IMG/VR virus record: IMGVR_UViG_3300042564_002819
Coordinates: 266,025-330,024 of that record
Source: a virus
Reading direction: 5' to 3' (one strand)
DNA length: 64,000 bases
Below the pieces are notes generated by a model. That model was given only the letters and a program-made list of their open reading frames with translations, was not told the origin of the DNA and did no database searches. This document shows positions 553-32,568 of the stretch, piece by piece; within the stretch, counting starts at the first letter, position 1; each line of letters opens with the position of its first letter. A program made the position numbers and the translations under genes.

Positions 553-934
553 TATTGTTATAATTACTCCGCCGGATATATTAAACAATGATGCATTTAG
601 TATTTGTTTAATACATCCTAGAAAAGAGTTAAAAGAAACTTTGCACGATATTTTAACTCGCGTTGAAATAAATGTAAATGTTTTTTTATACGAATTATTA
701 GCAGACTATGATATTGAATGGCTGTTAAATGTGGTAAAGTCATCCGATGTAGTTTTAATTGATGTTGATAATTGTGACGTACTTACAAAAGTTTTTTCTA
801 GTCATATTATTGCACAACCGAAAACATTTTACTTGACAAATGATAACTATACCCCTTATAATGTAATAAGCAAGAACAGAGTTTATGATCTGTCTTGGTT
901 AGAAAATATTCTTAATAGAGGAACAAATGAATAA
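545..934 (+). CDS. hypothetical protein
   Basis: 129-aa ORF, start overlaps upstream stop (ATGA coupling). Confidence 0.35.
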   Translation: MNNIVIITPPDILNNDAFSICLIHPRKELKETLHDILTRVEINVNVFLYELLADYDIEWLLNVVKSSDVVLIDVDNCDVLTKVFSSHIIAQPKTFYLTNDNYTPYNVISKNRVYDLSWLENILNRGTNE

Positions 935-1157
935 ATTTCACCAAACCGATAGCTATCCTAAAGGTTTAAGAGTTGAGGTCCATAATAACGATCTCACAAA
1001 GGCACTACGCAAACTTAAAAAGAAAATTGCAGACGACGGTATTATGCAAGATATTAAAAATAAAGAATTTTTTGAAAGCAAAAGTCTCAAGCGTCGTAAA
1101 GCAAAAGAAGCTGCAATTAGACGTTACAAGAAAACACAAAAAATGCAAGACCTCTAA
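927..1157 (+). CDS. rpsU: ribosomal protein bS21-like
   Basis: 76-aa basic protein; [43 protein letters not shown] parallels the E. coli S21 core [44 protein letters not shown]. Confidence 0.7.
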
Positions 1158-1165
1158 GGTTTAAA

Positions 1166-2299
1166 ATGCGTTTAGATTTAGATATAAAATTAGATTATAA
1201 AGACGTTCTTATACGTCCCAAAAGAAGTACATTAGGAAGTCGTGCAGAAGTAGATCTAATACGTAACTTTACGTTTAGAAACTATGTTCCTGGATTTCCT
1301 GAAAACACAGAAGATTATCATTATCGTGGTATTCCTATTATGGCAGCCAACATGGACGGTGTTGGCACATTTGAAGTAGCAGATGCTCTTGCGAAGCAAG
1401 GACTGTTTACATGCCTTGTAAAAACTTACACAGAAAAAGAATTAGTCGATTATTTTAATCAAGAACCGGGCGGCATTTATAGAACAGATCATGTTGCTAT
1501 GAGTATCGGAGTAAGCAATGCAGATTACGAAAAGTTCTGTAAAGTTTATTTAAGTCTCGGTGCTAGATTAAAATACCTCTGTATCGATGTTGCTAATGGA
1601 TATACAGAAACTTTTGTTAATCATGTAAGAAACATTCGCGAACGCTATCCGGAAATAGTTATTATTGCCGGTAACGTAGTAACAGGCGAAATGACGGAGG
1701 AACTTATTCTTGCTGGAGCAGATATCGTTAAAGTTGGCATTGGTCCTGGTAGTGTTTGTACTACTCGTATACAGACTGGTGTGGGTTATCCGCAATTATC
1801 AGCAGTTATCGAATGTGCAGATGCTGCTCATGGACTCGGTGGTCATATTATTGCTGACGGGGGTTGCACTTGTCCTGGCGACGTAGCCAAAGCATTTGCA
1901 GCCGGTGCTGACTTTGTAATGCTAGGTGGAATGTTAGCCGGGCATGATCAAGGCGGCGGCAACGTTATACACAAGGCTTTCAAGACTGGCGAAATACACT
2001 ATGATAACGGCGACGAAATACTTGATATAAAAAAGTTTGTGCAGTTTTATGGTATGAGTTCAAAAGCTGCTAACGATAAACACTTCGGTGGCTTAAAAGA
2101 TTACAGAGCATCCGAAGGTAGAGAAGTTCTTGTACCTTACAGAGGTGATGTACAAGTAACTGTGCAAGAAATACTAGGCGGGCTGCGTAGTACTTGCACG
2201 TATGCAGGTGCTAAGACATTAAAACAACTTAGCAAATGCACAACCTTTGTACGTGTAACACAGCAATTTAATGCTGTTTATGCGAACAATGGTAAATAA
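1166..2299 (+). CDS. guaC: IMPDH/GMP reductase family enzyme (GMP reductase-like, no CBS insert)
   Basis: 377 aa; catalytic loop [20 protein letters not shown] and GGxLAG glycine motifs of the IMPDH/GuaC TIM barrel. Confidence 0.8.
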
Positions 2300-2354
2300 A
2301 AGTGGAACGCCAAAACGGGTTCCGAAAGATCTTGCTTAAATAAGGAGATATAAA

Positions 2355-2789
2355 ATGACAAGACTTACAACATTAGACCTACCCTCATTTCATCGTGCCA
2401 CAGTTGGCTTTGACAGAATTTTTAATGAAATTGAACGTCAATTTGCCAATTCTCCAAATACCAACAACTATCCTCCATACAACGTTGCTGAAATCAACGA
2501 AAACGAATGGATGATCAGTATTGCAGTTGCTGGCTTTGGAATGGACAATCTCGATATTGTACACGATAAAAATATCTTGACTGTTGAGGGCACATCTCCA
2601 AAAGGAGACGAGGAAGTAAAGTATCTACACAAGGGACTCGGAAGACGCAGTTTCCGTAGAAGCTTTACACTAGCCGACTTTGTTGAAGTTGCAAACGCAA
2701 CCCTTGAGCTCGGTATGCTAAATATTCATCTAAAGCGTAATGTTCCAGAAGAACTACAGCCGAAGAGAATTGAAATTATTGCTAACTAA
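2355..2789 (+). CDS. small heat shock protein (Hsp20/alpha-crystallin)
   Basis: IbpA-like blocks PPYNV..NEW.ISIAVAGF and FRRSFTLADFVEV within a 144-aa protein. Confidence 0.8.
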   Translation: MTRLTTLDLPSFHRATVGFDRIFNEIERQFANSPNTNNYPPYNVAEINENEWMISIAVAGFGMDNLDIVHDKNILTVEGTSPKGDEEVKYLHKGLGRRSFRRSFTLADFVEVANATLELGMLNIHLKRNVPEELQPKRIEIIAN

Positions 2790-2795
2790 TGTCTA

Positions 2796-2824
2796 ATTGT
2801 TAGAGGGTGCAACACCCTCTAACA
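2796..2824 (+). terminator. perfect 13-bp inverted repeat (TTGTTAGAGGGTG CAA CACCCTCTAACAA), putative terminator/operator
   Basis: palindrome directly after the Hsp20 stop; no U tract. Confidence 0.35.
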
Positions 2825-2842
2825 AACCTTGGAGAAAAATAA

Positions 2843-14430: not shown

Positions 14431-14622
14431 TTGGTAAATAATAACATGAAAACGTATCCAGCTAATGAAATATTTCAAGACATTGAAAATGACAAAAACA
14501 ACGTCTTGATGAATATTCCTCCTGAAATTGCAGAAGAATTAGGATGGGTACCGGGAGACGTCTTGAAGATCGAAATATTAGAAAGTGGCGGCGTTTCTAT
14601 TTCCAAGGTAAAAAATGGCTAA
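14431..14622 (+). CDS. AbrB/MazE-like small DNA-binding protein
   Basis: 63 aa; [31 protein letters not shown] resembles a swapped-hairpin motif. Confidence 0.35.
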
Positions 14623-14830
14623 AGAAGATGTTATTGAAGTAGAAGGCGAAATTGTAGATGTTTTGCCTAACCAAACTTTTCGTGTAGAACTCGAAAACGG
14701 TCACAGGGTAACTTGTTACACTGGCGGAAAGATGAGACAATTTAAAATTAGACTCGTACAGGGCGACAAAGTTAAAGTAGAAATGACACCATACGATCTA
14801 CAAAAAGGTCGAATTATGTTTAGGATCTAA
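14615..14830 (+). CDS. infA: translation initiation factor IF-1
   Basis: 71 aa; [64 protein letters not shown] is near-colinear with bacterial IF-1. Confidence 0.85.
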
Positions 14831-15227: not shown

Positions 15228-15256
15228 TTGACACGCCTTCTGCGATTTGCTATATT
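15228..15256 (+). promoter_or_regulatory. sigma70-like promoter
   Basis: TTGACA-N17-TATATT. Confidence 0.55.
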
Positions 15257-15287
15257 GCTACAAATGCAACAGCTAAAGGCTAGAAAA

Positions 15288-17644: not shown

Positions 17645-17914
17645 ATGATTACTTTTGTTTGCGAAATTAATCCAACATATGCCAAGCAGAATGGACTTAA
17701 TAGATACTATCTTGCAAAGGCTAAAAATGCAAATTGGCAAAAAGAAACAAATCTTCCTCGTTCACTACTGTATGGCTCTGACCGTGTGTGGAGAATTTAC
17801 GAAAACGGAACAGTTGATTTTGTAAAAAATAGATTTACAGGTATTATGACTCCTGTCGATCAAAGAGAACTTACTGTTGCTCTCTTGAGTGCAGTATGCT
17901 ATAACAGTGTATGA
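17645..17914 (+). CDS. hypothetical protein
   Basis: 89-aa ORF. Confidence 0.3.
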   Translation: MITFVCEINPTYAKQNGLNRYYLAKAKNANWQKETNLPRSLLYGSDRVWRIYENGTVDFVKNRFTGIMTPVDQRELTVALLSAVCYNSV

Positions 17915-18519
17915 TCAAAGTACAAGGCAAACTCCCTCGCAGTGTTTACGTCGGATGTTCCGGCGGCTCGGATTCTATGGCTGTGGTCGATTTCTTGTCT
18001 CGTAGACATGATGTTGAAGTTATTTTCTTCCATCATGGCTCCGAACACGACACTGTTGCACAAGATCTTGTTTATAATTACTGTCATAAAAAGAACATCG
18101 AATGTATTCTCGGCGGCATGAACAAAGACGATACAATCAAGCCAGGAATGAGCAAAGAAGACTTTTGGAGATGGCGTCGCTATCGATTCTTTGAGCAATT
18201 CGCTAGGCCTGAAACTCCTGTTATTACTTGCCATCATCTAGATGACTGTGCTGAAACTTGGATTTGGAGTAGCTTGAACGGAAGTCCTTGTATTATTCCT
18301 TATCGTAGAAACAATGTGATTAGACCGTTTAGACTTAACAGAAAAAAAGACTTGGAGCTCTGGGCACAACTTAATGGCGTGCCCTACATCGACGATCCTA
18401 CTAACACCGATACTACTTTTACTCGAAATTATATTAGACACGAGCTAATGCCACATGCATTACGAGTTAATCCTGGACTGCACAAGGTTATTAAAAAGAA
18501 AGTTTTAGATGATGTTTAG
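17911..18519 (+). CDS. tilS: TilS-like PP-loop ATPase (tRNA(Ile)-lysidine synthetase N-domain-like)
   Basis: PP-loop VGCSGGSDSMAVV; FFHHGSEHD and CHHLDDCAETWIWSSLNGSP parallel TilS HVHHG and HLDDQCETFL motifs; only about 200 aa, so catalytic domain only. Confidence 0.6.
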   Translation: MIKVQGKLPRSVYVGCSGGSDSMAVVDFLSRRHDVEVIFFHHGSEHDTVAQDLVYNYCHKKNIECILGGMNKDDTIKPGMSKEDFWRWRRYRFFEQFARPETPVITCHHLDDCAETWIWSSLNGSPCIIPYRRNNVIRPFRLNRKKDLELWAQLNGVPYIDDPTNTDTTFTRNYIRHELMPHALRVNPGLHKVIKKKVLDDV

Positions 18520-21652: not shown

Positions 21653-21872
21653 ACAACTTATAAGTTTAGCAAAAGAAGCAGAAATAACAGATCCGTTGAA
21701 CTGGGACTTGATCAAGGTTGACAAAGAAACAGTTTATAGTATTATGGCTTCAAATGTGCTAGAACAGTTTGCATCTTTAAAAGATGAAGAAAAATTAGTT
21801 ATAGCAATGGGAACTGTAACCAAGCTTTTGGTTGAAAATTTTTACTTACATATGAAAGAAAAACTAAAATGA
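21630..21872 (+). CDS. hypothetical protein
   Basis: 80-aa ORF. Confidence 0.3.
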   Translation: MNFIPSVEQLISLAKEAEITDPLNWDLIKVDKETVYSIMASNVLEQFASLKDEEKLVIAMGTVTKLLVENFYLHMKEKLK

Positions 21873-22727: not shown

Positions 22728-22814
22728 GGTCGGTGGCCCGGATGGTAAGGGGATGGACTGCAACTCCATAGCACTGCACGACAGTAATCAGTTCGATTCT
22801 GATACCGACCTCCA
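22728..22814 (+). tRNA. tRNA-like, class II-type (long variable arm), apparent anticodon GCA
   Basis: perfect acceptor GGTCGGT/ACCGACC, T arm ATCAG-TTCGATT-CTGAT, anticodon stem ATGGA/TCCAT with loop CTGCAAC, 17-nt variable arm; unusual for Cys. Confidence 0.4.
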
Positions 22815-22818
22815 CAAT

Positions 22819-22895
22819 TGGTGCCGTAACTCAGTTGGTCAGAGTGCATCGCTCATAACGATGAAGTCGGTGGTTCAAATCCACCCGGCACCACC
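22819..22895 (+). tRNA. tRNA with CAT anticodon (Met or Ile2/lysidine type)
   Basis: GGTGCCG..CGGCACC acceptor, anticodon loop CTCATAA, TTCAAAT T loop, CCA encoded. Confidence 0.8.
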
Positions 22896-22900
22896 AAAAT

Positions 22901-22977
22901 TGGGACATTGGACTTCTTGGCGAAGGTCGCCGCCCTTTCAAGGCGGAGAAACGGGTTCGAAACCCGTATGTCCTACC
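22901..22977 (+). tRNA. tRNA-Glu(TTC)
   Basis: cloverleaf by eye; anticodon stem CCGCC/GGCGG, loop CTTTCAA. Confidence 0.7.
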
Positions 22978-23093
22978 AAAATAGATCAAGCCTAGTCGAT
23001 CTCGAAAATCACTAGGCCCGCTCCTGAGGATCAAGCCATCGGAAGGTTCGAGACTTCCTTTGCAGGGTCGTCACCTGCCAGGAGTAACATACA

Positions 23094-23178
23094 TGGGAGA
23101 GACGCCTCAAGGTGAGGCAGTGGATTGTAAATCCATCGCGGCAACGCACGGACGGGTTCGATTCCCTCCTCTCCCACC
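23094..23178 (+). tRNA. tRNA-Tyr(GTA)
   Basis: GGGAGAG..CTCTCCC acceptor; loop TTGTAAA; long variable arm as in bacterial Tyr. Confidence 0.75.
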
Positions 23179-23184
23179 AAAATT

Positions 23185-23260
23185 AGGGTCTCTGGTATAG
23201 CTGGTGCGTACGGCTGCCTGAAGAGCAGTAGGACACGGTTCGATTCCGTGGGGACCCGCC
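23185..23260 (+). tRNA. tRNA-Phe(GAA)
   Basis: anticodon loop CTGAAGA, T arm CACGG-TTCGATT-CCGTG. Confidence 0.7.
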
Positions 23261-23469
23261 AAGAATTATACTACCATAAACACGAAAGAAAATAAAATGA
23301 AACTTGATCCGGAAGAAAGAATCTTCTTGACTGAAGAAGAATTGAAGCGTATACATGATGCTTGTGCTAATCCACCGGAACCAACAGACTATGTAAGACG
23401 CTATATTAACGCATATAGGAGAAAAAATGAAACGAAAACGTAACGCAGAAGATTATGACAAACGCAACA

Positions 23470-23545
23470 TGGACCGGTAGCTGAGGTGGTTTTAGCACCC
23501 GACTTTTAATCGGAGTACGTGGGTTCGAGTCCCACCCGGTCCACC
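23470..23545 (+). tRNA. tRNA-Lys(TTT)
   Basis: perfect acceptor GGACCGG/CCGGTCC; loop CTTTTAA. Confidence 0.8.
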
Positions 23546-23665
23546 ATAGTTTTGATGATACACTGACGCCGCGTGGTTACGGCTATACAACTAGGCTTAT
23601 CGCAACCTAATAACCATAGAGGGTTGAGTCGAGGTTGAGCAGTGTATCTTTTAAACTATGAATAT

Positions 23666-23741
23666 TGTTCCATAGCACAACTGGTTAGTGCAGGCGACTG
23701 ATAATCGTCAGATCTGAGTTCGAGTCTCGGTGGAACAACCA
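23666..23741 (+). tRNA. tRNA-Ile(GAT)
   Basis: acceptor TGTTCCA/TGGAACA; loop CTGATAA. Confidence 0.75.
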
Positions 23742-23953
23742 AAATTAGTAGGAAGACAGCCAGTGGAAGAACAGGAATATTACGCACCGTGGGAATGGCA
23801 GCCGATCGAATTCATGCCTAACGGATGTAATGATGTTGTTGTAAGAGACCGTGAAGGCAACACTCGAGAATTGTGTTCATGCGATTACTGGTGGTTGTCA
23901 GCAGAAGATAAAAAGATTTACACATCTTTTAGATTTGTGTAATTTTAACATAA

Positions 23954-24029
23954 TGCCGTGCTTGGTGTAAGGGTAGCATACCGCACTGTGACTGCGTTGG
24001 AATAGGTTCAAATCCTATACACGGTACCA
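23954..24029 (+). tRNA. tRNA-His(GTG)
   Basis: anticodon arm CCTGCC-like CCGCA-CTGTGAC-TGCGT; TTCAAAT T loop; acceptor register and G-1 uncertain. Confidence 0.6.
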
Positions 24030-24041
24030 ATACAAATTTAA

Positions 24042-24635
24042 TTATTGTACTTTTTTACTTAATACTCTGTATATGTCGTTATAGTTATTTTTATATTTCG
24101 ACTCATTGACAATTTCGTAGTTATATAATTGGTTTAATACCTTTAAACCATGTATTCCATCTTTAGTATCTAATTGATTGCATGTACCTATTACATGATC
24201 TGACAATGACAAACTATAATCAAATAGTTCTTCCCAAGTATTATTATATGGATACAGTTCTATAATTACCATTTGATGTTTTTTAGTGTAATTAAAAAAA
24301 TCACATTTCATAGCTGTGATGTTTGGGTAGTTGTGCATTGTGTTAAACAGTGCTAGGGTGTTTTGTTTTTTTAAAAACTTATCCGCACAAGTCATCTTAT
24401 GAAGATCACGCAACTCTTCGTATGTTTCAATATAGTGAAACGTATCTATTGCAGTAACATGTGTCTTTGGAAATGAACGACAAATTGCCGCAGCAACTCT
24501 GCCGCCAAATGTGCCAGCACACAAAACGTCACGTATATCATTGTTTGATATATGATCGCAAATATTAACTATTTCCTCGTATCCAGTCCAATTTGGAAAG
24601 TCCATTAGTATATTATATTTGCTTTTATATGACAT
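24042..24635 (-). CDS. putative SAM-dependent methyltransferase
   Basis: glycine-rich motif I LCAGTFGGRVAAA followed by an acidic residue; AAGGAA RBS. Confidence 0.4.
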   Translation of the reverse strand: MSYKSKYNILMDFPNWTGYEEIVNICDHISNNDIRDVLCAGTFGGRVAAAICRSFPKTHVTAIDTFHYIETYEELRDLHKMTCADKFLKKQNTLALFNTMHNYPNITAMKCDFFNYTKKHQMVIIELYPYNNTWEELFDYSLSLSDHVIGTCNQLDTKDGIHGLKVLNQLYNYEIVNESKYKNNYNDIYRVLSKKVQ

Positions 24636-24691
24636 GTGATATTCCTTGTATAACTAAAACGTATTTATAAAACTTAAAATAAGAGAGATAA

Positions 24692-25123
24692 ATGATGAGC
24701 AAATATGACACATATAACAGATTAACCGAACCTGTAAAATCATTTGATGAACTACGCGGCCGTGCGTTAACTCGTGTTGAAAAAATCGGAAACGACGAAT
24801 TGCGTTTCTACTTAACAGATGAACATTATGTTCGTATGCATCACAATCAAGATTGTTGCGAATCAGTAACAATCGAGGATATTGTTGGTGATTTAGACGA
24901 TTTAGTCGGAACTCCGTTGCTGGTTGTCGAAGAACGTGTTTCTCGTAACGATGGCGGTACAGATGAACTGTATTGTGATTCATACACTTGGACATACTAC
25001 AGTTTTCGCACTATCAAAGGTAGTGTAGATATTCGTTGGTATGGAAGTAGCAATGGATACTATTCAGAAGGTGTTGACATTGACATTGTAACACCCGATG
25101 CAGAAAATCAAGTAGAAATCTAA
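24692..25123 (+). CDS. hypothetical acidic protein
   Basis: 143-aa ORF with AAGAGAG RBS. Confidence 0.4.
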   Translation: MMSKYDTYNRLTEPVKSFDELRGRALTRVEKIGNDELRFYLTDEHYVRMHHNQDCCESVTIEDIVGDLDDLVGTPLLVVEERVSRNDGGTDELYCDSYTWTYYSFRTIKGSVDIRWYGSSNGYYSEGVDIDIVTPDAENQVEI

Positions 25124-25192
25124 GGCCAAAGGCTTAGATCACATCAAGTTAAACTGTATTATTTCTATATACTGTCATTTTATAAATATTTT

Positions 25193-25705
25193 ATGAGGGT
25201 ATTACTAATAATAACGCTATTATTATCTCTTTCTGCTTGTGCTGATTTTAAGAAAATTCTTCGACCCGAACCTACACCAGAACCGATAAAAACAGCAATA
25301 GAAAAAGTAGGTTGGAACGAGCATCAAGACCGCAGAGAAATAAGAGAATTTACTGGTGTAGATCCAGTAAGTACACAATGGTGTGCTGCGTTTGTAAACG
25401 CAGTTCTTGAAGAAAATGGGTTACCTGGATCGGAGTTCTATAACGAAAATCCACTGTTAGCAAGAAGTTTTCTGTCCTGGGGTGTAGAGGTAGAAGAGCC
25501 CGAATACGGCGATATTGTAGTATTTGCTCGAGGCAATGAAGCTTGGAAGGGTCATGTTGGGTTTTATGTAACTTCGACATATTTAGAAGGTCAAAAACAC
25601 TACTTAGTTCTTGGCGGAAATCAAAACAACAGTGTCACATACAAAGCATATCCTACTCGTAGACTGCTTTCTGTAAGACGACTTACAACAGAAGATACTG
25701 AATAA
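25193..25705 (+). CDS. lipoprotein, CHAP/NlpC-P60-like (TIGR02594-type) putative peptidoglycan hydrolase
   Basis: lipobox LSAC; conserved Cys (TQWCAAFVNAV) and His (WKGHVGFYV) spaced as in Cys-His amidases. Confidence 0.5.
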   Translation: MRVLLIITLLLSLSACADFKKILRPEPTPEPIKTAIEKVGWNEHQDRREIREFTGVDPVSTQWCAAFVNAVLEENGLPGSEFYNENPLLARSFLSWGVEVEEPEYGDIVVFARGNEAWKGHVGFYVTSTYLEGQKHYLVLGGNQNNSVTYKAYPTRRLLSVRRLTTEDTE

Positions 25706-25718
25706 AATTTAGTTTAAT

Positions 25719-25795
25719 GCTCTCGTAGCTCAATGGATTAGAGCGTCGGTCTACGAAACCGAAGGTTAGAGGTTCGAGTCCTCTCGAGAGTGCCA
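25719..25795 (+). tRNA. tRNA-Arg(ACG)
   Basis: anticodon stem TCGGT/ACCGA, loop CTACGAA. Confidence 0.75.
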
Positions 25796-25804
25796 AAATA
25801 CTAG

Positions 25805-25833
25805 TTGACACTGGCATAGACAAGTGTTATTGT
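25805..25833 (+). promoter_or_regulatory. sigma70-like promoter
   Basis: TTGACA-N17-TATTGT. Confidence 0.45.
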
Positions 25834-25858
25834 GAGTGCAACAAGAAAGGAAATACAC

Positions 25859-26155
25859 ATGAATAAAATTCTAATTTCTGCACTTTTTGCCTTTGTTTCT
25901 ACTGCTGCTACTGCAAAAACAGTTTATTACCCCGAAGCTGCATGTAACGAAATTCTCAGCAGCGAATACAGCACTGGTGGGGGTGATTCCAGCTGGGAGA
26001 TGTACGAAATTCTTTGCCGTGACGCTAATGGAAAATACACTACCTTTGTTACCAGCTGGATGAGTGTTGCAGGGTTCTTTGGTATGGGTCGAGTTGCATA
26101 CGAAGAAACGATTGACCTTGTACCCTACAACGGTACTACATTGAAGGCTGAATAA
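25859..26155 (+). CDS. secreted small protein
   Basis: signal peptide MNKILISALFAFVSTAATA; AAGAAAGGAAA RBS. Confidence 0.4.
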   Translation: MNKILISALFAFVSTAATAKTVYYPEAACNEILSSEYSTGGGDSSWEMYEILCRDANGKYTTFVTSWMSVAGFFGMGRVAYEETIDLVPYNGTTLKAE

Positions 26156-26156
26156 A

Positions 26157-26600
26157 ATGAAAATCGAATATCGTAAAGGCAACATGTTTGAAACTGACAT
26201 CCTGCATATTGCACATGGCTGCAATGCACAAGGTGTTATGGGATCTGGCGTTGCTAAGATTGTAAAAGAAGATTACTTTGATGCATATCGTTTCTACGCA
26301 GAACAGTACGACGAGCATGGACTTAAATTAGGAGATGTGCAGTTTGTTCCTGCAAACGGCAAAGTAATCATCAATGCTGTTACGCAGAATCTGTACGGCA
26401 AAGACGGTCGTCGTTTTGTTAATTACGAAGCAGTTGCAGAGTGCATGAGAACTATTAATAGTGTACTTAAGCAAAGTGGCGAAACTCATGTTGCTATGCC
26501 GCAAATTGGTGCCGGCCTTGGTGGCGGCGATTGGCGTGTGATTGAAGCAATCATTGAAAGCGAAATGACAGACATTCAACCTGTGGTGTATGTACTGTGA
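26157..26600 (+). CDS. macro domain (ADP-ribose binding/hydrolase) protein
   Basis: GNMFETDILHIAHGCNAQGVMGSGVA and MPQIGAGLGGGDW match Macro-domain glycine-rich loops. Confidence 0.75.
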   Translation: MKIEYRKGNMFETDILHIAHGCNAQGVMGSGVAKIVKEDYFDAYRFYAEQYDEHGLKLGDVQFVPANGKVIINAVTQNLYGKDGRRFVNYEAVAECMRTINSVLKQSGETHVAMPQIGAGLGGGDWRVIEAIIESEMTDIQPVVYVL

Positions 26601-26773
26601 CAACACCCTTAGCAGATCAGAAGATATTCTCACTCAATGATCTCATTGAAATGGGTCTTATTACACGTAAACAGTTAGAAGATCACATCCGATACATGGA
26701 AGCAAAACAGTTAGTAAAAGAACTGTTTCCAGGAATGTTTTAAAAATAAAGAATAGGTAGCCGCGACTACCTT

Positions 26774-26905
26774 GGCTAGGAGACTATTTGCATTGTGCAT
26801 CGTGGGGCCTTTGTGTAGTAGACTGTTTCGTCTAACGGAGAGGACGCCGGTGGAGATCCGGAGATACAGGTTCGAGTCCTGTAGCAGTTTTGCTCCTAGC
26901 CAAAA
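26774..26905 (+). ncRNA. tRNA-like element with 9-bp terminal stem and canonical T arm (about 130 nt)
   Basis: GGCTAGGAG...CTCCTAGCC closing stem; ACAGG-TTCGAGT-CCTGT T arm; extra hairpin AGCA-GTTT-TGCT; too long for a tRNA. Confidence 0.3.
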
Positions 26906-26912
26906 TAATTTA

Positions 26913-26988
26913 GCCTTCGTAGCTCAACTGGAAGAGCAAGGGATTTCTACTCCCTAGGTTGTGGGTTCGACTCCTGCCGGGGGCACCA
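26913..26988 (+). tRNA. tRNA-Arg(TCT)
   Basis: anticodon stem AGGGA/TCCCT, loop TTTCTAC; acceptor GCCTTCG/CGGGGGC with two G-U pairs. Confidence 0.7.
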
Positions 26989-26997
26989 AAAAAGCTG

Positions 26998-27026
26998 TTG
27001 ACACAGACTTGGCACTATGCTACAAC
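26998..27026 (+). promoter_or_regulatory. island promoter unit 1
   Basis: GTTGACA ... TATGCT/TACAAC, GAGGAA RBS. Confidence 0.45.
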
Positions 27027-27058
27027 AAGTTATTGAATAACACATGAGGAACACTGAG

Positions 27059-27448
27059 ATGAAGACTGCTTACAAGAACCGTGACGGCGAATGGGTTGTG
27101 GCCGAGCAGATCAAGATGAGCCGGTATGACCTTGAAGGTTCGGTAGATTCGATTAAGGCTGCACTGGACGAGGTTCGCGACCGTGCTACCGCAATGGGTA
27201 TGGTGGGTGAAGGCACTGTTGACATCAGCCTGAACCGCGGCTTCTACTCGGACGACTACGAAATAGAAGTGGAATACTCCTTCACTCGGTATGAATACCC
27301 TGTGGAGATGGAGCGGCGTTTGGAGCGTGAGGCCAAGGATAAGGCTGCGGCTGCTGCCAAGCGTAAGGAAGCCGCCCAGAAGCGGAAACTCAAGAACGAT
27401 CCTGAGTATGTGGAGTTTGAACGGCTCCGGGCCAAGTTTGGTGGTTGA
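27059..27448 (+). CDS. hypothetical protein (GC-rich island gene 1)
   Basis: about 50% GC versus about 38% background; own promoter and RBS; Lys/Ala/Glu-rich C-terminus. Confidence 0.5.
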   Translation: MKTAYKNRDGEWVVAEQIKMSRYDLEGSVDSIKAALDEVRDRATAMGMVGEGTVDISLNRGFYSDDYEIEVEYSFTRYEYPVEMERRLEREAKDKAAAAAKRKEAAQKRKLKNDPEYVEFERLRAKFGG

Positions 27449-27504
27449 CAACACTCTCCTGCTGTGCTATAACAACAGCATAGGGCAACACGAGGAGAAA
27501 TCAA
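27445..27504 (+). promoter_or_regulatory. island promoter unit 2 with conserved leader
   Basis: GTTGACA-N17-TATAAC then CATAGGGCAACACGAGGAG leader. Confidence 0.55.
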
Positions 27505-27852
27505 ATGCCTTGTAGAGTCAACGACGAAGACTGGAAACCGCGTAAAGAAACCCGCCACGGGATGGATATCGAATCTTTCGAAGCTACACTTTGCGGCGTC
27601 TTCACTGCTGCAGAGGAAGGCGCCTTTGCGCCTACGGTTGTTGGCGGAGTTGATGGCTTGCTGGATGTGATCGACTGGAAAGAAGCCGGAGTGAAACGCA
27701 AGACCGTTGAAGCATGGTGGAAGCGGCATAAGGCAGAAGATGCTGCCCGCCTTGCTCGCGAATCTGCTGAACGGCGTAAGGCTGAACTCAAGCGGATTGC
27801 GATCGGCAAACTCACTGCAGAAGAACTGGAAGTGTTGGGGATCAAACTCTAA
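27505..27852 (+). CDS. hypothetical protein (island gene 2)
   Basis: 115-aa ORF, GC-rich, own promoter and SD. Confidence 0.5.
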   Translation: MPCRVNDEDWKPRKETRHGMDIESFEATLCGVFTAAEEGAFAPTVVGGVDGLLDVIDWKEAGVKRKTVEAWWKRHKAEDAARLARESAERRKAELKRIAIGKLTAEELEVLGIKL

Positions 27853-27862
27853 CACTTTCTGG

Positions 27863-27923
27863 TTGACATCCTACCTACACCGTGCTATGTATATTGTATA
27901 GGGCAACAAGAGGACAACCACAG
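27863..27923 (+). promoter_or_regulatory. island promoter unit 3 with conserved leader
   Basis: GTTGACA-N17-TATGTA then TATAGGGCAACAAGAGGA leader. Confidence 0.55.
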
Positions 27924-28175
27924 ATGCCGAATCCTGCTACTGCTCCCCGTGACGAATTGAACGAGTTTACTCGCTCTGTATGGCTGCTTGGTAACAGCAA
28001 CTGGGGTAATCACGGTGTACGTCTTCGGAACGGGTTGATTGTCAAACCGATCTACAAGCCCGCAGAAGACGAGACCAGTGAAGATGCATTCTTCACCGAA
28101 GACTATGAATACTGCTGGAACCTGGACGGCACTTCGGTAACCCGCAGGGACTTTGATATGATGGAGATCGTGTGA
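27924..28175 (+). CDS. hypothetical protein (island gene 3)
   Basis: 83-aa ORF from the ATG 8 nt after the GAGGA box. Confidence 0.45.
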   Translation: MPNPATAPRDELNEFTRSVWLLGNSNWGNHGVRLRNGLIVKPIYKPAEDETSEDAFFTEDYEYCWNLDGTSVTRRDFDMMEIV

Positions 28176-28176
28176 T

Positions 28177-28584
28177 ATGATCAGAGACCTATTCGTTCCT
28201 GTGGCTGAACTGCTGTTCTGGTTCACCGGCGGAGAACTACTGCTGAATACCTGGTGGTTCTTTGTGTGGGTTGTTGGTGGTGCGTTCCTTGTAACCTTGC
28301 CGCTGTGGTTAGGTATGCGTCTGGCCAGACGTGGTAGTAACCTCAAGTGGATACCTGGCACACTCTTCCTAGTCGGCTTCTTCCCTGCCTTACTGCTGAT
28401 CACCAGCCCAGGCATCATCCAAGCCGACTTGATGGAAGAATGCCTACCCGTCCAGACCGTAACAGTGGATACCGCACAGGTCAAAGGTATTGAAGTTCGA
28501 GTTCGCCAGTGTCGCTTCAAGGCCAACTACTATGACAAAAATTATGGTGAATGGCAAGCCTGGGCGGTTGACCGGCACCAATAA
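28177..28584 (+). CDS. membrane protein (island gene 4), about 4 TM segments
   Basis: translationally coupled to gene 3; hydrophobic N-terminal half. Confidence 0.45.
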   Translation: MIRDLFVPVAELLFWFTGGELLLNTWWFFVWVVGGAFLVTLPLWLGMRLARRGSNLKWIPGTLFLVGFFPALLLITSPGIIQADLMEECLPVQTVTVDTAQVKGIEVRVRQCRFKANYYDKNYGEWQAWAVDRHQ

Positions 28585-28869
28585 CTGTATTATAAGCTGC
28601 ATAAGGAGAGACCGGCAACTTGTGTAGTGCATGTAGTGACGACTTGCGGATAACAGGTGGGATCGTGACATGTTGTAAATCTTTATGTAAGGGGTCGACA
28701 CTTTATATAGAGAGAACGCTGCATACGCTGTGGGACCTCGGCGTATCATTAAGGTGATCAAATCACGCAGGGGTAAAAGCCCTAATGAGGGGTCCTAGGA
28801 ATTAAAGGAAATACTGTGAGATATAGAAAGTTTTACGACGACTTCTAGGCTATAACCTAGGAGAATCAA

Positions 28870-29076
28870 ATGGCAAAATCACCTGTTTACGGCAGAGGCC
28901 GTAATCGTAAACATAGAGGGCACCGCGGCCCTGTTCACGCTGCGGCTGCTAACATCAATATGCGTGGCAAAAAAAGCAAACCTGACCACTGCTGGTGCTG
29001 TATTTGTATTGACATGCGTGAAGATATCTTGTATCGTATACACAAGAAGGAGATGAGAGATGAAAGAGACACGTAA
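28870..29076 (+). CDS. small basic Cys-rich ORF (doubtful)
   Basis: GGAGAA RBS but odd composition. Confidence 0.25.
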   Translation: MAKSPVYGRGRNRKHRGHRGPVHAAAANINMRGKKSKPDHCWCCICIDMREDILYRIHKKEMRDERDT

Positions 29077-29584
29077 GTATCTAGTATTTTTAGACATTGA
29101 CGGCGTTTTTACTAGCTCTCGTGTTCACTTTGCACACGCTGCTGCTTATGAAATGTGGCACAGATTTGATCCTGTAGCAGTTGATTTTATGAACAAGATT
29201 CATGACAGATATCCTGTGGAGTTTGTGATCATGAGTACTTGGAAGGACAACCTTCGCAGTGACGATAACAACGTAAAACACTGGGTTCATGCTGCGTTTG
29301 GCAACAGTGGCTTTCGTGGGCAACTTGCTACACCTTGGAAAACAGATCCTGACAACGTCATCTGGCAGCGTAAAGGTGCAAATGATCGTGCCTACGAAGT
29401 AAAAGAATATTTAGAACTATACGCAACAGATATAAAAGATTACATTTTGTTTGATGATAATCGCTATCAATTCAAAGAAGTGCTAGGCGTTAATCGCCTA
29501 GTTCATACAGATCACGAAAATGGTCTGTTATACAAGCATATGCTAAATGCTCATAGTTTGATGGGACAGTGGCACGAGCGGTGA
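29060..29584 (+). CDS. HAD-superfamily phosphatase (paralog 1)
   Basis: motif I LVFLDIDGVF; 174 aa. Confidence 0.55.
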   Translation: MKETRKYLVFLDIDGVFTSSRVHFAHAAAYEMWHRFDPVAVDFMNKIHDRYPVEFVIMSTWKDNLRSDDNNVKHWVHAAFGNSGFRGQLATPWKTDPDNVIWQRKGANDRAYEVKEYLELYATDIKDYILFDDNRYQFKEVLGVNRLVHTDHENGLLYKHMLNAHSLMGQWHER

Positions 29585-29616
29585 CATCGCTCGGAATAAT
29601 AACAAAGGAAACAGAG

Positions 29617-29826
29617 ATGACTAAAGAACAAGTTTTAAAATCGCTACCCACGTTTAAATTGCTGGCATGGGGAGAAACCGCAGAAACCAGCGGCAATGGA
29701 AAATATGTGCATTTTGATGCAAAAGAATCTAGTACACGTATCTTTACTATTGAAGCAATTCTTGCAGAACTAGATAAGCGTGACGACAATCCTAACCGAG
29801 ATTCTAGAAAAAAGAAGAAAAAATGA
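29617..29826 (+). CDS. hypothetical protein
   Basis: AAAGGAAACAGAG RBS then ATG. Confidence 0.3.
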   Translation: MTKEQVLKSLPTFKLLAWGETAETSGNGKYVHFDAKESSTRIFTIEAILAELDKRDDNPNRDSRKKKKK

Positions 29827-29909
29827 TTAAGTTGCATATTGCTAATTTGGTTAATATTTTGTTATCCAAATTGCAAGAGATATTGTATAATAGATTAATA
29901 AATTAAAGT

Positions 29910-30482
29910 ATGTGTAAGTTAGTTTTTGTTTATAGTTCTATGAATTCCGGTAAAAGCCTAGCTGTTCTTACCAAAAATTATATGTTAAAAGAAAAAGGTT
30001 TTAAGACTGTGCTCATGAAGCCGGCAGTTGATACTAGGACTGCGGCAACTGTGGCTACACGCTTAGGCTTAGAAGAGCCCTGTGTTGTACTAGGAACAAC
30101 TGATTTGCCTAGTCATACTATACTAAAATCAGCACACGACAAGCCTGATTTTATTATTGTTGACGAAGCACAGTTTTTAACAAGCGAACAAGTTTGGGAC
30201 CTAGCTGGCTTAGTCGACAACTGGGGCATAAACGTGTATTGCTATGGTCTACGACTTAACTGGCAAGGAGAGTTTTTTACAGGATCGGAAGCACTGATGA
30301 AAATTGCTGATGTGCTAGAACCAATCGAAAACTTCTGTCAAATAAATAAAGGAGCACTAGCATTCTTTCATATTAAAAAAGCAGGTGGCGATAATCCTGT
30401 AGAAGTTGGAATGGAAGACATGTATGACACTGCGTCTAGAAAAGCCTGGAAGCAGTGGTATGACACAAAAAGGCCTCTGTAG
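29910..30482 (+). CDS. tdk: thymidine kinase
   Basis: VFVYSSMNSGKSLAVL P-loop plus FIIVDEAQFL; extended TGTATAAT promoter upstream. Confidence 0.85.
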   Translation: MCKLVFVYSSMNSGKSLAVLTKNYMLKEKGFKTVLMKPAVDTRTAATVATRLGLEEPCVVLGTTDLPSHTILKSAHDKPDFIIVDEAQFLTSEQVWDLAGLVDNWGINVYCYGLRLNWQGEFFTGSEALMKIADVLEPIENFCQINKGALAFFHIKKAGGDNPVEVGMEDMYDTASRKAWKQWYDTKRPL

Positions 30483-30548
30483 CTCAATGGATAGAGCAGC
30501 AGACTTCGAATCTGTAGGTTGGGCGTTCGAGTCGCTCCAGGGGTACCA
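30473..30548 (+). tRNA. tRNA-Arg(TCG)
   Basis: starts inside the tdk stop codon; loop CTTCGAA. Confidence 0.7.
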
Positions 30549-30610
30549 AAATAACACTTGATCTCTTACTTTGCATAGTGTAAGCTGTAAGTATAGTAAA
30601 GGAGAATCAA

Positions 30611-30790
30611 ATGTGGAAACTTTATATTATGGAATCTGAACGCGGTTGGGGTCAACGAGTTGACGAAATACTAAAGTTCGACACGTATGAAGAGGCCGAT
30701 AAATACAAAAAAGAATTTAACAGTAAAAACAATCTTCCTGAAGTGCCTGATTGGTACATGTATGCAGATGGACCTGTTAAAGTAGATTAA
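30611..30790 (+). CDS. hypothetical small protein
   Basis: 59 aa, strong AAAGGAGAA RBS, wedged between two tRNAs. Confidence 0.45.
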   Translation: MWKLYIMESERGWGQRVDEILKFDTYEEADKYKKEFNSKNNLPEVPDWYMYADGPVKVD

Positions 30791-30874
30791 GTCGCTGTGG
30801 TGTAATGGTAGCCACGACAGCTTGAGGTGCTGTTGCCGCAAGGCGTGGGAGTTCGAATCTCCCCAGCGACACCA
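30791..30874 (+). tRNA. tRNA-Leu(GAG)
   Basis: class II; acceptor GTCGCTG/CAGCGAC; loop TTGAGGT; variable arm TGCCGCAAGGCG. Confidence 0.75.
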
Positions 30875-30890
30875 ATTTTAAGGAATAAAA

Positions 30891-31541
30891 ATGGCTCTAA
30901 CTAGATTAATTGGCGACATTCATGGAATGGTAAATGACTACAAGGCCTATTCTATTGGGGATTTTAGTGGTCCTACAATTCAACTTGGCGACTTTGGAGT
31001 TGGGTTCGGTCAAAATGATTACTGGTATGAAAGCATTAATTCTTTTCATAAAGCAGGCAACCATCGGTTTATTCGTGGTAATCATGATAATCCTGCTCTG
31101 TGCAAAACTATGGACGGATACATTACAGACGGTAGCATTGAGAATGATGTAATGTTTATTGGTGGTGCTTGGAGCATCGATAATCCTAATGCACCTCCGG
31201 GTTGGTATAAGCGTACAAAGGACTATGACTGGTGGGAGGAAGAAGAACTCAGCAGTGACGAACTTGAACGTATGATTGATATCTATGCTGTAGTTAAACC
31301 ACGTGTGATGATTACACATGATTGTCCTAACATTATCAGCAGACAGATGTTTTTCAACAGTGGATTTCTAAAAGGTCCTGAATACCCCAACCGTACAAGT
31401 GCTGCGTTTACTCGTATGTTGGATATTCATCAACCCGACGAATGGTACTTTGGACACTGGCATTTTACAATGCAATACAAATACGGACGCACACTATTTC
31501 ACTGTCTTGGTGAACTAGATTACGTAGACGTAGAACTTTAA
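30891..31541 (+). CDS. calcineurin-like metallophosphoesterase
   Basis: GDIHG ... GDFG ... RGNHDNP motifs. Confidence 0.6.
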   Translation: MALTRLIGDIHGMVNDYKAYSIGDFSGPTIQLGDFGVGFGQNDYWYESINSFHKAGNHRFIRGNHDNPALCKTMDGYITDGSIENDVMFIGGAWSIDNPNAPPGWYKRTKDYDWWEEEELSSDELERMIDIYAVVKPRVMITHDCPNIISRQMFFNSGFLKGPEYPNRTSAAFTRMLDIHQPDEWYFGHWHFTMQYKYGRTLFHCLGELDYVDVEL

Positions 31542-31606
31542 GGTTGATGTTCTGTTGTGTACTTGCTATAATGCAAGTCACAACAGCACATTGAAAGAAT
31601 CTTAAA

Positions 31607-31930
31607 ATGTCGGAAACTACGTATAAATTTACTATCGGAGATGAAGGCATGGTTATTTCGGCTAGCTACGATACTGGTTGGAATGACAGTCTCAATTGTG
31701 GCGGCGTTGGCGGCTGGTCCGGAGTTATTAATAGTAACAGCGGAACATACGAATTTTACATGAAAAGTATTAAAAGTCTAAACGGCCTTGCTGTAAAAAG
31801 TAATGGAAAGGACTTTTGGACCGAGTATTACAATTCTAGCAGAGGTGTAGATGGATACACCGTGACTATCGAAGATAACACTATTACTGTTATTGCAAAT
31901 GAACCTCAATCTTTTCCATGGTGGAAATAA
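31607..31930 (+). CDS. hypothetical protein
   Basis: 107-aa ORF. Confidence 0.35.
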   Translation: MSETTYKFTIGDEGMVISASYDTGWNDSLNCGGVGGWSGVINSNSGTYEFYMKSIKSLNGLAVKSNGKDFWTEYYNSSRGVDGYTVTIEDNTITVIANEPQSFPWWK

Positions 31931-31942
31931 AGGAAAAACAAA

Positions 31943-32179
31943 ATGACTTATATGGCTACATTGTGGTATGCTGGTGCTGTGGTTATGCAACTAGGTTCGG
32001 AAGGACAAAATCTTAATGATTGTGAAATGTTAAAAACTATGATGATCACTGACATTGAACAAACATATTCCGATCCTAGTAAAATTGATGAACTTTCTAA
32101 ATCAATTTTTCCTACAAACCAGTTTGAAGTAACCTGTGAAACACAGTTGCTTGCAGTTGATGAGAAATACAAAAAATGA
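31943..32179 (+). CDS. hypothetical protein
   Basis: 78-aa ORF. Confidence 0.3.
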   Translation: MTYMATLWYAGAVVMQLGSEGQNLNDCEMLKTMMITDIEQTYSDPSKIDELSKSIFPTNQFEVTCETQLLAVDEKYKK

Positions 32180-32568
32180 CATCTAAACTTTATATTGTTA
32201 TGCGGCGTGATCTGTGGGATATGAACCCAGGCAAGGCTATGGCACAGGCTGCTCATGCTCAAGCAGACTTTGACCTGTATATGTTTGCTGATCCTAAAGC
32301 TGCAAAAAGCAAAGAAATTGCAGATGCTGTAATAGCATGGCGTGAAGATAGGCATTTTGGCACTACGCTAGTGCTGCACGAACCAGTGGATACATTTGAC
32401 AAGATTTCAATGAATGTAGCACATTGGGGCTACGTTACTGATCCTACATATCCGTACCGTAACTATTACGGTGAAGTGTTTCTTCGTAGCGAAGTTACCT
32501 GTATGTGGGTATTTGCCTACACTGAAGCAGAACTAAAATATATGAGTCAATTTGATCTTCACCGTTGA
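32176..32568 (+). CDS. PTH2-family peptidyl-tRNA hydrolase-like
   Basis: KLYIVMRRDLWDMNPGKAMAQAAHAQAD parallels the PTH2 motif [24 protein letters not shown]. Confidence 0.5.
   Translation: MTSKLYIVMRRDLWDMNPGKAMAQAAHAQADFDLYMFADPKAAKSKEIADAVIAWREDRHFGTTLVLHEPVDTFDKISMNVAHWGYVTDPTYPYRNYYGEVFLRSEVTCMWVFAYTEAELKYMSQFDLHR

Follow-up and report, generated by a model that had tools for sequence, protein, structure and literature searches.

The window analysed here, a 64,000-nucleotide stretch of DNA, comes from the genome of a large, uncultivated phage, of which it forms an auxiliary-gene region. The best explanation of its content, to which we give a probability of roughly 60%, is that this region holds a real set of translation-support genes, with the roles set out in the closing section. 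The components listed in the earlier note (bS21, IF-1, a PTH2-like protein, a TilS-like protein and tRNAs) were each confirmed when taken element by element, and the interpretation built on them is partly supported.

Phage context and the translation-related genes

The source contig measures 136.6 kb, and the region examined came to 83 kb. Contigs with homologues of the window's TilS and PTH2-like proteins reach up to 350-380 kb. Several observations speak for viral origin: this short form of TilS turns up on 476 IMG/VR contigs, the source contig and flanks carry typical phage auxiliary genes, uncultured phages with genomes of 635-642 kb and PA5oct-like jumbo phages also have TilS homologues, and Lak megaphages carry IF-1 homologues. 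All window features located below are on the plus strand.

The bS21 homologue (76 aa, 927..1157) matches PF01165 (E 1.3e-15) and exceeds the TIGR00030 cut-off (52 bits against 28.95); the nearest deposited phage copies are those of Methylophilales Melnitz phages. IF-1 (71 aa, 14615..14830) scores 103.5 bits against a TIGR00008 cut-off of 61.15 and matches PF01176 (E 2.1e-23). For the 130-aa candidate peptidyl-tRNA hydrolase (32176..32568), the match to PF01981 is weak and N-terminal, covering residues 4-32 only (24.5 bits against 23), and all 20 family members tested match the same profile. An AlphaFold2 model made from 90 sequences (pLDDT 87.6), among which K20 and D89 are invariant, returned archaeal Pth2 structures as its top four Foldseek matches (1rlk, 2zv3 and two chains of 3erj), at probability 1.00 and over the full length. 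The protein shares with archaeal and eukaryotic Pth2 a full-length fold (TM 0.58-0.70) and the N-terminal motif R-x-DL-x-M-x-x-GK-x-x-AQ-x-x-HA, but identity is only 18-24% and profiles match the first ~30 residues alone. A tblastn search among deposited phage genomes gave no match to it.

Three elements add to the gene list of the earlier note. A ribosomal L7/L12 C-terminal-domain-like segment is encoded at 54234..54620 (PF00542, residues 69-97, 37.4 bits against 25.9), and this Pfam match is also precomputed for the source contig. An RNA-repair gene run (41276..43534) consists of a HAD_SAK_2 protein (41276-41797; PF18143, E 5.4e-9), a P-loop kinase (41844-42377; PF13671, E 2.6e-18) and a T4-type RNA ligase 1 (42377-43534; PF09511, E 1.5e-27, with a sub-threshold T4_Rnl1_C match of 25.4 bits, cut-off 27); a further HAD phosphatase of RNA-repair type (HAD_SAK_2, 29060..29584; PF18143, E 3.6e-16) and a protein with a PNKP-type phosphatase domain (35777..36220; PF25109, E 4.7e-30) lie elsewhere in the window. 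The third is a GOLLD RNA at 63639..64000, cut by the window end, which scores 136 bits against RF02032 with its 3' end truncated and 191.8 bits on the source contig (gathering score 150).

ARAGORN finds 30 tRNAs in the window; Rfam brings the number to 31 by adding a class II tRNA-Tyr(GTA) with a weak T stem (23095..23176; Rfam tRNA, 35 bits), whose anticodon loop, TTGTAAA, was read from the sequence and which aligns with tRNA-Tyr genes of the related locus L001. The earlier count of at least 28 tRNAs therefore holds for the whole window, but only 13 lie within 927-32568, the interval to which it had been assigned. The tRNAs found by the two programs fall into two clusters. The 13 tRNAs of cluster 1 (22728..30874) are a class-II-like GCA tRNA, the CAT tRNA, Glu, Tyr, Phe, Lys, Ile(GAT) (23666..23741), His, Arg(ACG), a 72-nt GAG tRNA, Arg(TCT), Arg(TCG) and Leu(GAG); the opening order Cys-CAT-Glu is shared by L001, L014, L033 and L057. 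The 17 of cluster 2 (55105..61365) are Ser(ACT), Asn, Trp, Ser(GCT), Ala, Val, Ser(TGA), Asp, Gly(TCC), Thr(TGT), a GCA-loop variant, Leu(TAG), Gln, two Pro, Gly(GCC) and Thr(AGT). One of the 31 has an anticodon loop of 6 or 8 nt, and one is a tRNA-like element (63704-63777) embedded in the GOLLD RNA, with which the second group spans 55105-63777. Past GOLLD on the source contig come a second CAT tRNA, of initiator type and 327 nt beyond the window end, and then Leu(CAA) and Leu(TAA); the 83 kb hold at least 34 tRNA genes.

A one-domain TilS homologue and its neighbourhood

The 202-aa TilS homologue (17911..18519) comprises the N-terminal catalytic (PP-loop) domain only, as had been proposed: it matches TIGR02432 (lysidine_TilS_N; 103 bits, cut-off 93.6) and PF01171 (E 4.5e-27), and the C-terminal domains are absent. 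Its best PDB match is Aquifex aeolicus TilS, where the alignment covers the N-terminal domain (residues 25-228; E 9e-26). The catalytic residues, whose loss on alignment would have spoken against a TilS assignment, are kept. SGGxDS, HHLDD..ET, RPF, DxSN and RNxIRH are all present, align with their counterparts in A. aeolicus, G. kaustophilus and E. coli TilS, and are invariant or nearly so across 20 diverse members of a family of 1879 homologues of about 200 aa.

Among 83 TilS loci, IF-1 occurs in 48 (median 4.3 kb upstream of TilS, mean identity 73%) and a conserved 251-aa protein, ORF251 (15228..15983 in the window), in 56; in at least nine loci the latter directly adjoins TilS, 0-3 nt away, and it has no match in Pfam, PHROG or PDB. 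In most loci, tRNA clusters follow TilS at a distance of 2-8 kb. In the distant relatives L004, L005 and L006, TilS is preceded by two CAT tRNAs, which end 16-17 nt and 97-350 nt before it and have G3-C70 or A3-T70, pairs that are Ile-type discriminators (PMC1635315). No CAT tRNA lies within 10 kb of TilS in about 80% of the TilS loci, so that the enzyme does not depend on a phage substrate close by.

The claim that AUA is frequent in phage genes agrees with the codon counts (14.9 per 1000 codons, 23% of Ile codons). Phage tRNAs cover 13 of the 14 A-ending codons, AUA alone being without an unambiguous one.

The CAT tRNA and competing readings

The CAT tRNA, previously placed one base off at 22819..22895, lies at 22820-22896 and is of elongator type, Ile2 or Met to judge from base pairs, profile scores and difference ratio. 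An initiator was considered and excluded by G1-C72, C11-G24 and the anticodon stem CAUCG/CGAUG; the fMet profile score is 1.7 bits. Coverage of all 20 amino acids, as the earlier note had it, holds by anticodon if this tRNA counts as Met and is otherwise incomplete; because the window has a single CAT tRNA, it provides either the full set or a tRNA-Ile2, never both.

We see about an even chance that it is an elongator tRNA-Met completing the 20-amino-acid set, with TilS acting on the tRNA-Ile2 of the host or on one that the phage encodes beyond the 83 kb. The Met profile scores 36.8 bits against 33.1 for Ile2, and the difference ratio is 1.00, as for E. coli tRNA-Met, with Ile2 references spanning 0.53-0.91. 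G3-C70 and C4-G69, hallmarks of bacterial Ile2, are absent, while G4-C69 and a Watson-Crick 27-43 pair (C27-G43) are Met-like; the T3-A70 pair belongs to neither class, and could have arisen from C3-G70, the Met-type pair, in two transitions with a G-U pair as intermediate. A near-twin in L006 (position 18619) scores 40.6 bits as Met against 21.6 as Ile2, in a locus where separate Ile2-type CAT tRNAs adjoin TilS, and the scarcity of CAT tRNAs near TilS in most loci points the same way. Against this, C5-G68 is Ile2-like and found in only 2% of Met references, the three nearest bacterial references are Ile2, and the CAT tRNAs at the same gene-order position in L001, L014 and L057 have ratios of 0.89-0.90, within the Ile2 range. 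A CAT tRNA with T3-A70 in the 635-kb phage LR745206.1 also scores as Ile2, and a Met identity would leave AUA as the sole A-ending codon with no phage decoder despite the phage-borne TilS. The base pairs of the window's tRNA-Ile(GAT) differ from those of the CAT tRNA at 4-69, 12-23 and 29-41. The odds that the CAT tRNA is the TilS substrate appear somewhat short of even, the rest falling to the host tRNA-Ile2 or to a phage tRNA-Ile2 elsewhere in the genome.

The enzyme itself might not be a lysidine synthetase but a PP-loop enzyme with another substrate, or a catalytically idle binder of host TilS or tRNA-Ile2. To our knowledge, every characterised TilS bears at least one appended tRNA-binding domain. 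Known TilS use their C-terminal domains for tRNA recognition and efficient catalysis, and removal of CTD2 from type I TilS strongly reduces activity (PMC11947777); the phage protein lacks both domains, has no PHROG family match, and is of a kind whose function the MIJ3 authors call unknown (PMC6892783). We nevertheless consider this improbable, given that the TilS-specific NCBIfam cut-off is passed, whereas TtcA, the next PP-loop family, reaches only 15.5 bits, that all TilS motifs are strongly conserved over about 1900 homologues, and that Ile2-type CAT tRNAs lie directly upstream in L004-L006 and co-occur in MIJ3. Less remote, though still unlikely, is independent acquisition of the translation genes, and no coordinated toolkit, in a hypervariable auxiliary region that accumulates host-like genes. 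The genes for bS21, IF-1, TilS, PTH2 and the bL12-like protein are 4-22 kb apart, interspersed with curli, bilin, polyamine, cyclase and NAD-salvage genes, and only part of the TilS neighbours are conserved across loci. Opposing this, the order of IF-1, ORF251, TilS and the tRNA cluster that follows is maintained in 48-56 of the 83 loci at a TilS identity of only about 55%, and nearly all window genes share one strand. Because auxiliary genes of unrelated function lie between the translation genes, a single coordinated module can only be proposed.

Known systems and implications for phage translation

Translation genes with a near-complete tRNA set are a known pattern in big phages, and both such gene sets and the TilS/AUA argument have been published before; less described are the one-domain TilS architecture and the conserved 251-aa TilS neighbour. 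The Pseudomonas jumbo phages vB_PaeM_MIJ3 and PA5oct (Wroclawvirus; PMC6892783) have the same short TilS, 45.5% identical over 93% of the query; the MIJ3 gene, 612 nt for about 203 aa, bears the annotation tRNA(Ile)-lysidine synthase. MIJ3, like the window phage, has CAT tRNAs of its own and an AT-rich genome. Its 12 tRNAs include two Ile2-like CAT tRNAs, with an anticodon arm almost that of E. coli tRNA-Ile2, and one of initiator type, whereas the window phage has at least 34 and, in the part examined, a single elongator CAT tRNA of ambiguous class; tilS lies about 6-10 kb downstream of the tRNAs in MIJ3 but upstream of them in the window phage. Huge phages and Lak megaphages (including LR745206.1, LR756502.1 and LR756511.1) likewise combine many tRNAs, an initiation factor and tRNA-modifying genes, with TilS homologues 43-44.5% and IF-1 homologues about 56% identical to those of the window, and no nucleotide-level similarity to it was found in their genomes. 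Beyond their set, the window phage has bS21, the PTH2-fold and bL12 C-terminal-domain-like proteins, the Rnl1 repair set and GOLLD RNA. The best solved relative of the enzyme is the type II TilS of A. aeolicus (1wy5/2e21/2e89), whose residues 25-228 contain the PP-loop domain and all shared motifs; that protein has 317 residues and a CTD1 thought to read the anticodon stem, while the phage protein stops at the domain boundary. AT-rich chloroviruses use AUA far more than their host and carry a putative TilS next to tRNA clusters (bioRxiv 10.1101/2020.07.06.190819), a likeness in functional argument; they infect eukaryotic algae.

The sequences themselves show which genes are present, the conserved catalytic motifs of TilS, the codon usage, the synteny of IF-1, TilS and tRNA cluster, and the Ile2-type CAT tRNAs beside TilS in relatives; the activities of TilS and the other enzymes, and all effects on translation, are inferred. 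The near-complete tRNA set would supply decoders for the A/U-rich codon usage of the phage. The one-domain TilS would adenylate C34 of a CAU-anticodon tRNA-Ile2 and then add lysine, and the lysidine would turn that tRNA from Met/AUG to Ile/AUA, making the frequent AUA codons of the phage readable. Phage IF-1 and bS21 may join host 30S subunits at initiation, the PTH2-fold hydrolase would free tRNA from dropped-off peptidyl-tRNA, and the Rnl1, kinase and phosphatase set could mend cleaved tRNAs. The "deliberate remodelling of initiation and decoding" that the earlier note saw here can reasonably be inferred, as has been proposed before for large phages.

Viral setting and translation genes

The viral assignment of the window rests on four lines of comparison, two from relatives of its TilS-like protein, one from relatives of IF-1 and one from auxiliary gene content; virion genes were not found in the window, which has a G+C content of 37-45% and carries about 95 of its 115 candidate ORFs on the + strand. 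Short TilS relatives occur on 476 IMG/VR viral contigs, as well as in two uncultured phage genomes of 635-642 kb and in the PA5oct/MIJ3 jumbo phages, and relatives of IF-1 are found in Lak megaphages. The auxiliary cargo (IMPDH/GMP reductase, Hsp20, ClpS, heme oxygenase and bilin reductase, ornithine decarboxylase, NAMPT, NMNAT-Nudix, thymidine kinase, RNR, PAAR, DNA ligase and ClpP) is typical of large phages. Contigs with homologues of TilS and of the PTH2-like protein are 311-374 kb long, which makes a jumbo-sized genome probable. Exact protein matches locate the window at about 50,262-114,261 of the 136,559-bp JGI metagenome contig Ga0453230_0000022 (the source contig), of which a further 10 kb on either side was covered (L011 upstream, L007 downstream). 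Megablast of positions 14000-22000 against deposited phages returned no match.

Several other genes were noted. At 3172-4372, heme oxygenase adjoins a ferredoxin-dependent bilin reductase, with Hsp20 and ClpS directly upstream (heme oxygenase, Hsp20 and ClpS were taken from the precomputed Pfam annotation of the contig). Curli-type secretion and fibre genes lie on this phage contig at 4413-9271, encoding CsgF (its Pfam match likewise precomputed), CsgG, two curlin-repeat proteins and a FecR-domain protein, and are followed by a CHASE2-adenylate/guanylate cyclase at 9927-11966. A 1019-aa protein (37330-40389) has KOW motifs and a segment like sigma-70 region 1.1 close to its C-terminus, and the 10-kb upstream flank (L011) encodes a PstS-like protein.

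Among the translation genes proposed in the earlier note, bS21 (927-1157; equivalog TIGR00030, 52 bits against a cut-off of 28.95) and IF-1 (14615-14830; equivalog TIGR00008, 103.5 bits against 61.15) are secure, the latter with a full-length S1-like OB domain spanning positions 1-68 of the 69-position model. Before structure modeling, the peptidyl-tRNA hydrolase-like protein at 32176-32568 was the weakest-supported of the genes listed: it scores 24.5 bits against PF01981 (gathering score 23) over residues 4-32, that is, 29 N-terminal residues, and its family profile gave only a marginal N-terminal match to a Pth2 chain among PDB sequences. An AlphaFold2 model from a 20-sequence input was too poor for use (pLDDT 57.9), and one built with a 90-sequence alignment reached a pLDDT of 87.6. 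The best four Foldseek matches of the model in the PDB all come from archaeal Pth2 (1rlk, 2zv3 and 3erj, the last with two chains), each with a probability of 1.00 and aligned over the whole length (132-135 columns). The PTH2 assignment stands as a predicted fold joined to an N-terminal sequence match, and the hydrolase activity is putative. A large representative search, with 948 relatives returned, gave the assignment no additional support. K20 and D89 are invariant across 90 homologues and lie in motifs that we take to resemble GK..AQ..HA and D-x-x-x-T of Pth2, making them candidate catalytic residues.

Two further groups were absent from the earlier list: a segment resembling the L7/L12 C-terminal domain in the protein at 54234-54620, and an RNA-repair set of T4-type RNA ligase 1, P-loop kinase, two HAD_SAK_2 phosphatases and a PNKP-type phosphatase. 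Near the repair genes, a macro-domain protein (26157-26600) and an ADP-ribosylglycohydrolase (40405-41316) suggest handling of ADP-ribosylation. The translation genes are genuinely present and may plausibly support translation of the phage, as has been proposed before in large phages. Translation genes carried by phages are well known, and the present set is one more example. The earlier note's observation is thus confirmed and extended, and its interpretation supported in part.

tRNA clusters and GOLLD RNA

ARAGORN detects 30 tRNAs in the window and Rfam 31, the extra one being a class II tRNA-Tyr(GTA) whose T stem is weak. The previous count of at least 28 therefore holds; their placement within 927-32568 fits only the first of two clusters (22.7-30.9 kb, 13 genes), the second lying at 55.1-63.8 kb. 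The upstream flank (L011, 10 kb) contains no tRNAs. The second cluster is closed by a GOLLD RNA (RF02032) at 63639-64000, cut by the window end and reaching, on the source contig, as far as about 64102 (11409-11872 of the downstream flank, L007). It scores 191.8 bits when complete on the source contig, against a gathering score of 150, and 136 bits as the truncated window copy. The last "tRNA" of the window, at 63704-63777, is a tRNA-like element inside this RNA; it has an 8-nt anticodon loop, CUUAUGAA, that contains UAU, and mismatches at 1-72 and 2-71. Past the window end, the GOLLD RNA is followed by a CAT tRNA of initiator type (A11-T24, G12-C23; nearest neighbours all fMet), Leu(CAA) and Leu(TAA).

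The clusters hold several unusual tRNAs. Besides the usual Arg(ACG), A34 occurs in Ser(ACT) at 55105-55194 and Thr(AGT) at 61292-61365; in the window genes, Ser is most often encoded by AGU and Thr by ACU. A34 tRNAs are also present in relatives' TilS loci (L003, L005, L006, L016, L026, L040 and others), with Ser(ACT) recurring in at least 14 and Phe(AAA) in L005 and L006. A conserved Cys-CAT-Glu cluster, found also in L001, L014, L033 and L057, is headed by an 87-nt tRNA (22728-22814) whose anticodon is GCA (Cys) and whose variable arm is long. A second GCA-containing tRNA, at 58591-58666, combines a weak T stem with an anticodon loop of 6 or 8 nt. The 72-nt GAG (Leu) tRNA at 26820-26891 has no long variable arm, although a bacterial tRNA-Leu would be expected to have one; Leu(GAG) of normal form, 84 nt in length, is present at 30791-30874.

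Identity of the CAT tRNA and the AUA codon

The earlier note proposed that, if the CAT tRNA at 22820-22896 is an Ile2 species, its modification to lysidine by the TilS-like enzyme would let the phage read AUA, and named initiator features in the tRNA or missing catalytic residues in the enzyme as findings that would speak against it. None of the fMet features looked for (a 1-72 mismatch, three G-C pairs at 29-31/39-41, A11-U24) is present in this tRNA: it has G1-C72, C11-G24 and the anticodon stem CAUCG/CGAUG, and its CAU anticodon sits in an elongator-type body with an fMet profile score of 1.7 bits. The choice accordingly lies between Ile2 and elongator Met.

For comparison, a pattern scan of bacterial genomes gave 123 CAT tRNAs from 120 diverse genome loci, reduced to 101 unique bacterial references (56 fMet, 25 Ile2, 19 Met, 1 other) when archaeal, odd and duplicate sequences were dropped; the pattern demands a CTCATAA loop, and tRNA-Met, with 19 sequences, is under-sampled. 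Labels were assigned from the published 3-70 and D-stem discriminators (PMC1635315), and a position-weight classifier using the remaining positions recovered them in 98 of 100 leave-one-out trials on these bacterial references. Pairs 3-70, 4-69 and 5-68 discriminate Ile2 from Met most strongly among the references, and the Ile2 acceptor elements applied were G3/A3 with C70/T70, C4-G69 and C5-G68 (PMC1635315 and the 25 bacterial references). Identity elements of E. coli IleRS (C4-G69, U12-A23, C29-G41) were dropped as a test, not being general among bacterial Ile2 references.

By these measures the phage tRNA falls between the classes. Its pair 3-70 is T-A, typical of neither class, 4-69 is Met-like (G-C) and 5-68 is Ile2-like (C-G); the bacterial profiles give a near-tie (Met 36.8 bits, Ile2 33.1 bits), and the three nearest reference neighbours are all Ile2. 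On the mean-difference ratio it stands at 1.00, where Ile2 references span 0.53-0.91 and Met references 1.00-1.55; E. coli tRNA-Met likewise ties at 1.00 (both E. coli reference sequences were checked against annotated genomes). CAT tRNAs in the same gene order in relatives straddle the boundary, with ratios of 0.89-0.90 in L001, L014 and L057 and of 1.07-1.13 in L033 and L006. Although both methods work on bacterial references, the position-weight classifier and the ratio disagree on other phage CAT tRNAs, and phage tRNAs appear to have drifted too far for bacterial profiles.

AUA is indeed frequent, as had been claimed: in 69 window genes it accounts for 23% of Ile codons and for 14.9 of every 1000 codons overall. 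Of the 14 A-ending codons, 13 have a phage tRNA in the 83 kb seen; the exception is AUA unless the CAT tRNA is Ile2, which argues for that identity. The same codon logic predicts an elongator tRNA-Met as well, with 83 kb of the genome visible. Moreover, the window's anticodons cover all 20 amino acids, as previously stated, only if its single CAT tRNA is Met, so that the pairing of TilS with an Ile2 tRNA conflicts with the claim of a complete set. We put the probability that the tRNA at 22820-22896 would be Ile2 at roughly 0.4-0.45.

TilS homologues with a catalytic domain only

The TilS homologue at 17911-18519 is well founded (TIGR02432, 103 bits against a cut-off of 93.6; PF01171, E 4.5e-27), and so is its description as a catalytic domain only. 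The PP-loop ATP-binding motif is SGGSDS (residues 17-22), and the catalytic motifs SGGxDS, HHLDD..ET, RPF, DxSN and RNxIRH show no or almost no variation across 20 diverse homologues and align with those of 1wy5, 3a2k and 1ni5. The 202-aa protein has no appended C-terminal tRNA-binding domain: it matches residues 25-228 of the 317-residue Aquifex aeolicus TilS and then ends (residue 202 corresponding to about 228), and scores 55 bits against the full-length model NF007942 (cut-off 606). It has 1879 detectable homologues, and since the best 120 are all 193-221 aa long, the one-domain form is, as judged by sequence, a real architecture and not a truncation. The ORF immediately downstream (18509-18991) was considered as a detached C-terminal domain and rejected, having no Pfam match and being kept in only 5 loci.

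This family is already present in the phage literature: the MIJ3/PA5oct TilS was reported in 2019 with its function given as unknown (PMC6892783), a TilS annotation exists in a jumbo Ralstonia phage, and the AUA argument has been made for chloroviruses (bioRxiv 10.1101/2020.07.06.190819). On phage contigs, it is nonetheless a very large, almost wholly uncultivated and under-described family. Recent enzymology describes TilS as always carrying an appended tRNA-binding domain, a 2025 paper recognizing only type I (NTD+CTD1+CTD2) and type II (NTD+CTD1), and does not settle how tRNA-Met is rejected where CTD2 is missing.

The surroundings of TilS are conserved among 83 loci of relatives. IF-1 is present in 48 of them (73% identity), a median of 4.3 kb upstream of TilS, and small ORFs lie directly downstream in 53. 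The gene for a 251-aa protein, ORF251 (15228-15983), occurs in 56 and adjoins TilS with a gap of 0-3 nt in at least nine; searches of Pfam, PHROG and the PDB gave it no informative match, nor any family or structural relative. ORF251 is a candidate partner of TilS.

The tRNAs near TilS bear on its possible substrate. In L004, L005 and L006, whose TilS is 49-52% identical to that of the window, two CAT tRNAs (G3-C70 or A3-T70) lie upstream of TilS, their ends 16-17 nt and 97-350 nt from its start; L006 has, elsewhere in the locus, a near-twin of the window CAT tRNA and initiator types. MIJ3 (L211, LR588166.1) has two CAT tRNAs, at 10151-10227 and 10632-10708, with identical D, anticodon and T arms and an anticodon arm (CGCGA-CTCATAA-TCGCT) near that of E. 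coli tRNA-Ile2; they differ only in the acceptor stem (CCCTCGG with C3-G70 vs. GGGACTT with G3-C70). Each is followed by Leu(TAA), a separate initiator type is also present, and the MIJ3 TilS does not have the domain that reads acceptor stems. These cases link the TilS family to CAU tRNAs. On the other hand, CAT tRNAs are absent within 10 kb in about 80% of the 83 loci, and a host tRNA is therefore an equally plausible substrate in many phages. Within 20 kb of its TilS, a 635-kb phage (L212, LR745206.1) has two tRNA-Ile(TAT) genes and a T3-A70 CAT tRNA that scores as Ile2, and so may have two separate routes for AUA decoding.

A further reading, which we consider rather unlikely, is that the phage proteins of about 200 aa are a third TilS class, active as a catalytic domain without the C-terminal domains that read the tRNA. 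They would owe their specificity either to a loose recognition that accepts any elongator CAU tRNA or to the ORF251 protein acting in trans, and could convert phage CAU tRNAs that host type I TilS would refuse, including Met-like bodies such as that at 22820-22896.

The narrower useful point of the window is that a one-domain TilS keeps its position relative to IF-1, ORF251 and tRNA clusters. Together with CAT tRNA pairs of the MIJ3 type, which differ only in the acceptor stem, the minimal enzymes provide a natural system for the question of tRNA-Met rejection. They also offer a way to learn if AUA decoding comes under a phage's own control; if the third-class reading were true, the phage would gain AUA decoding independent of its host.
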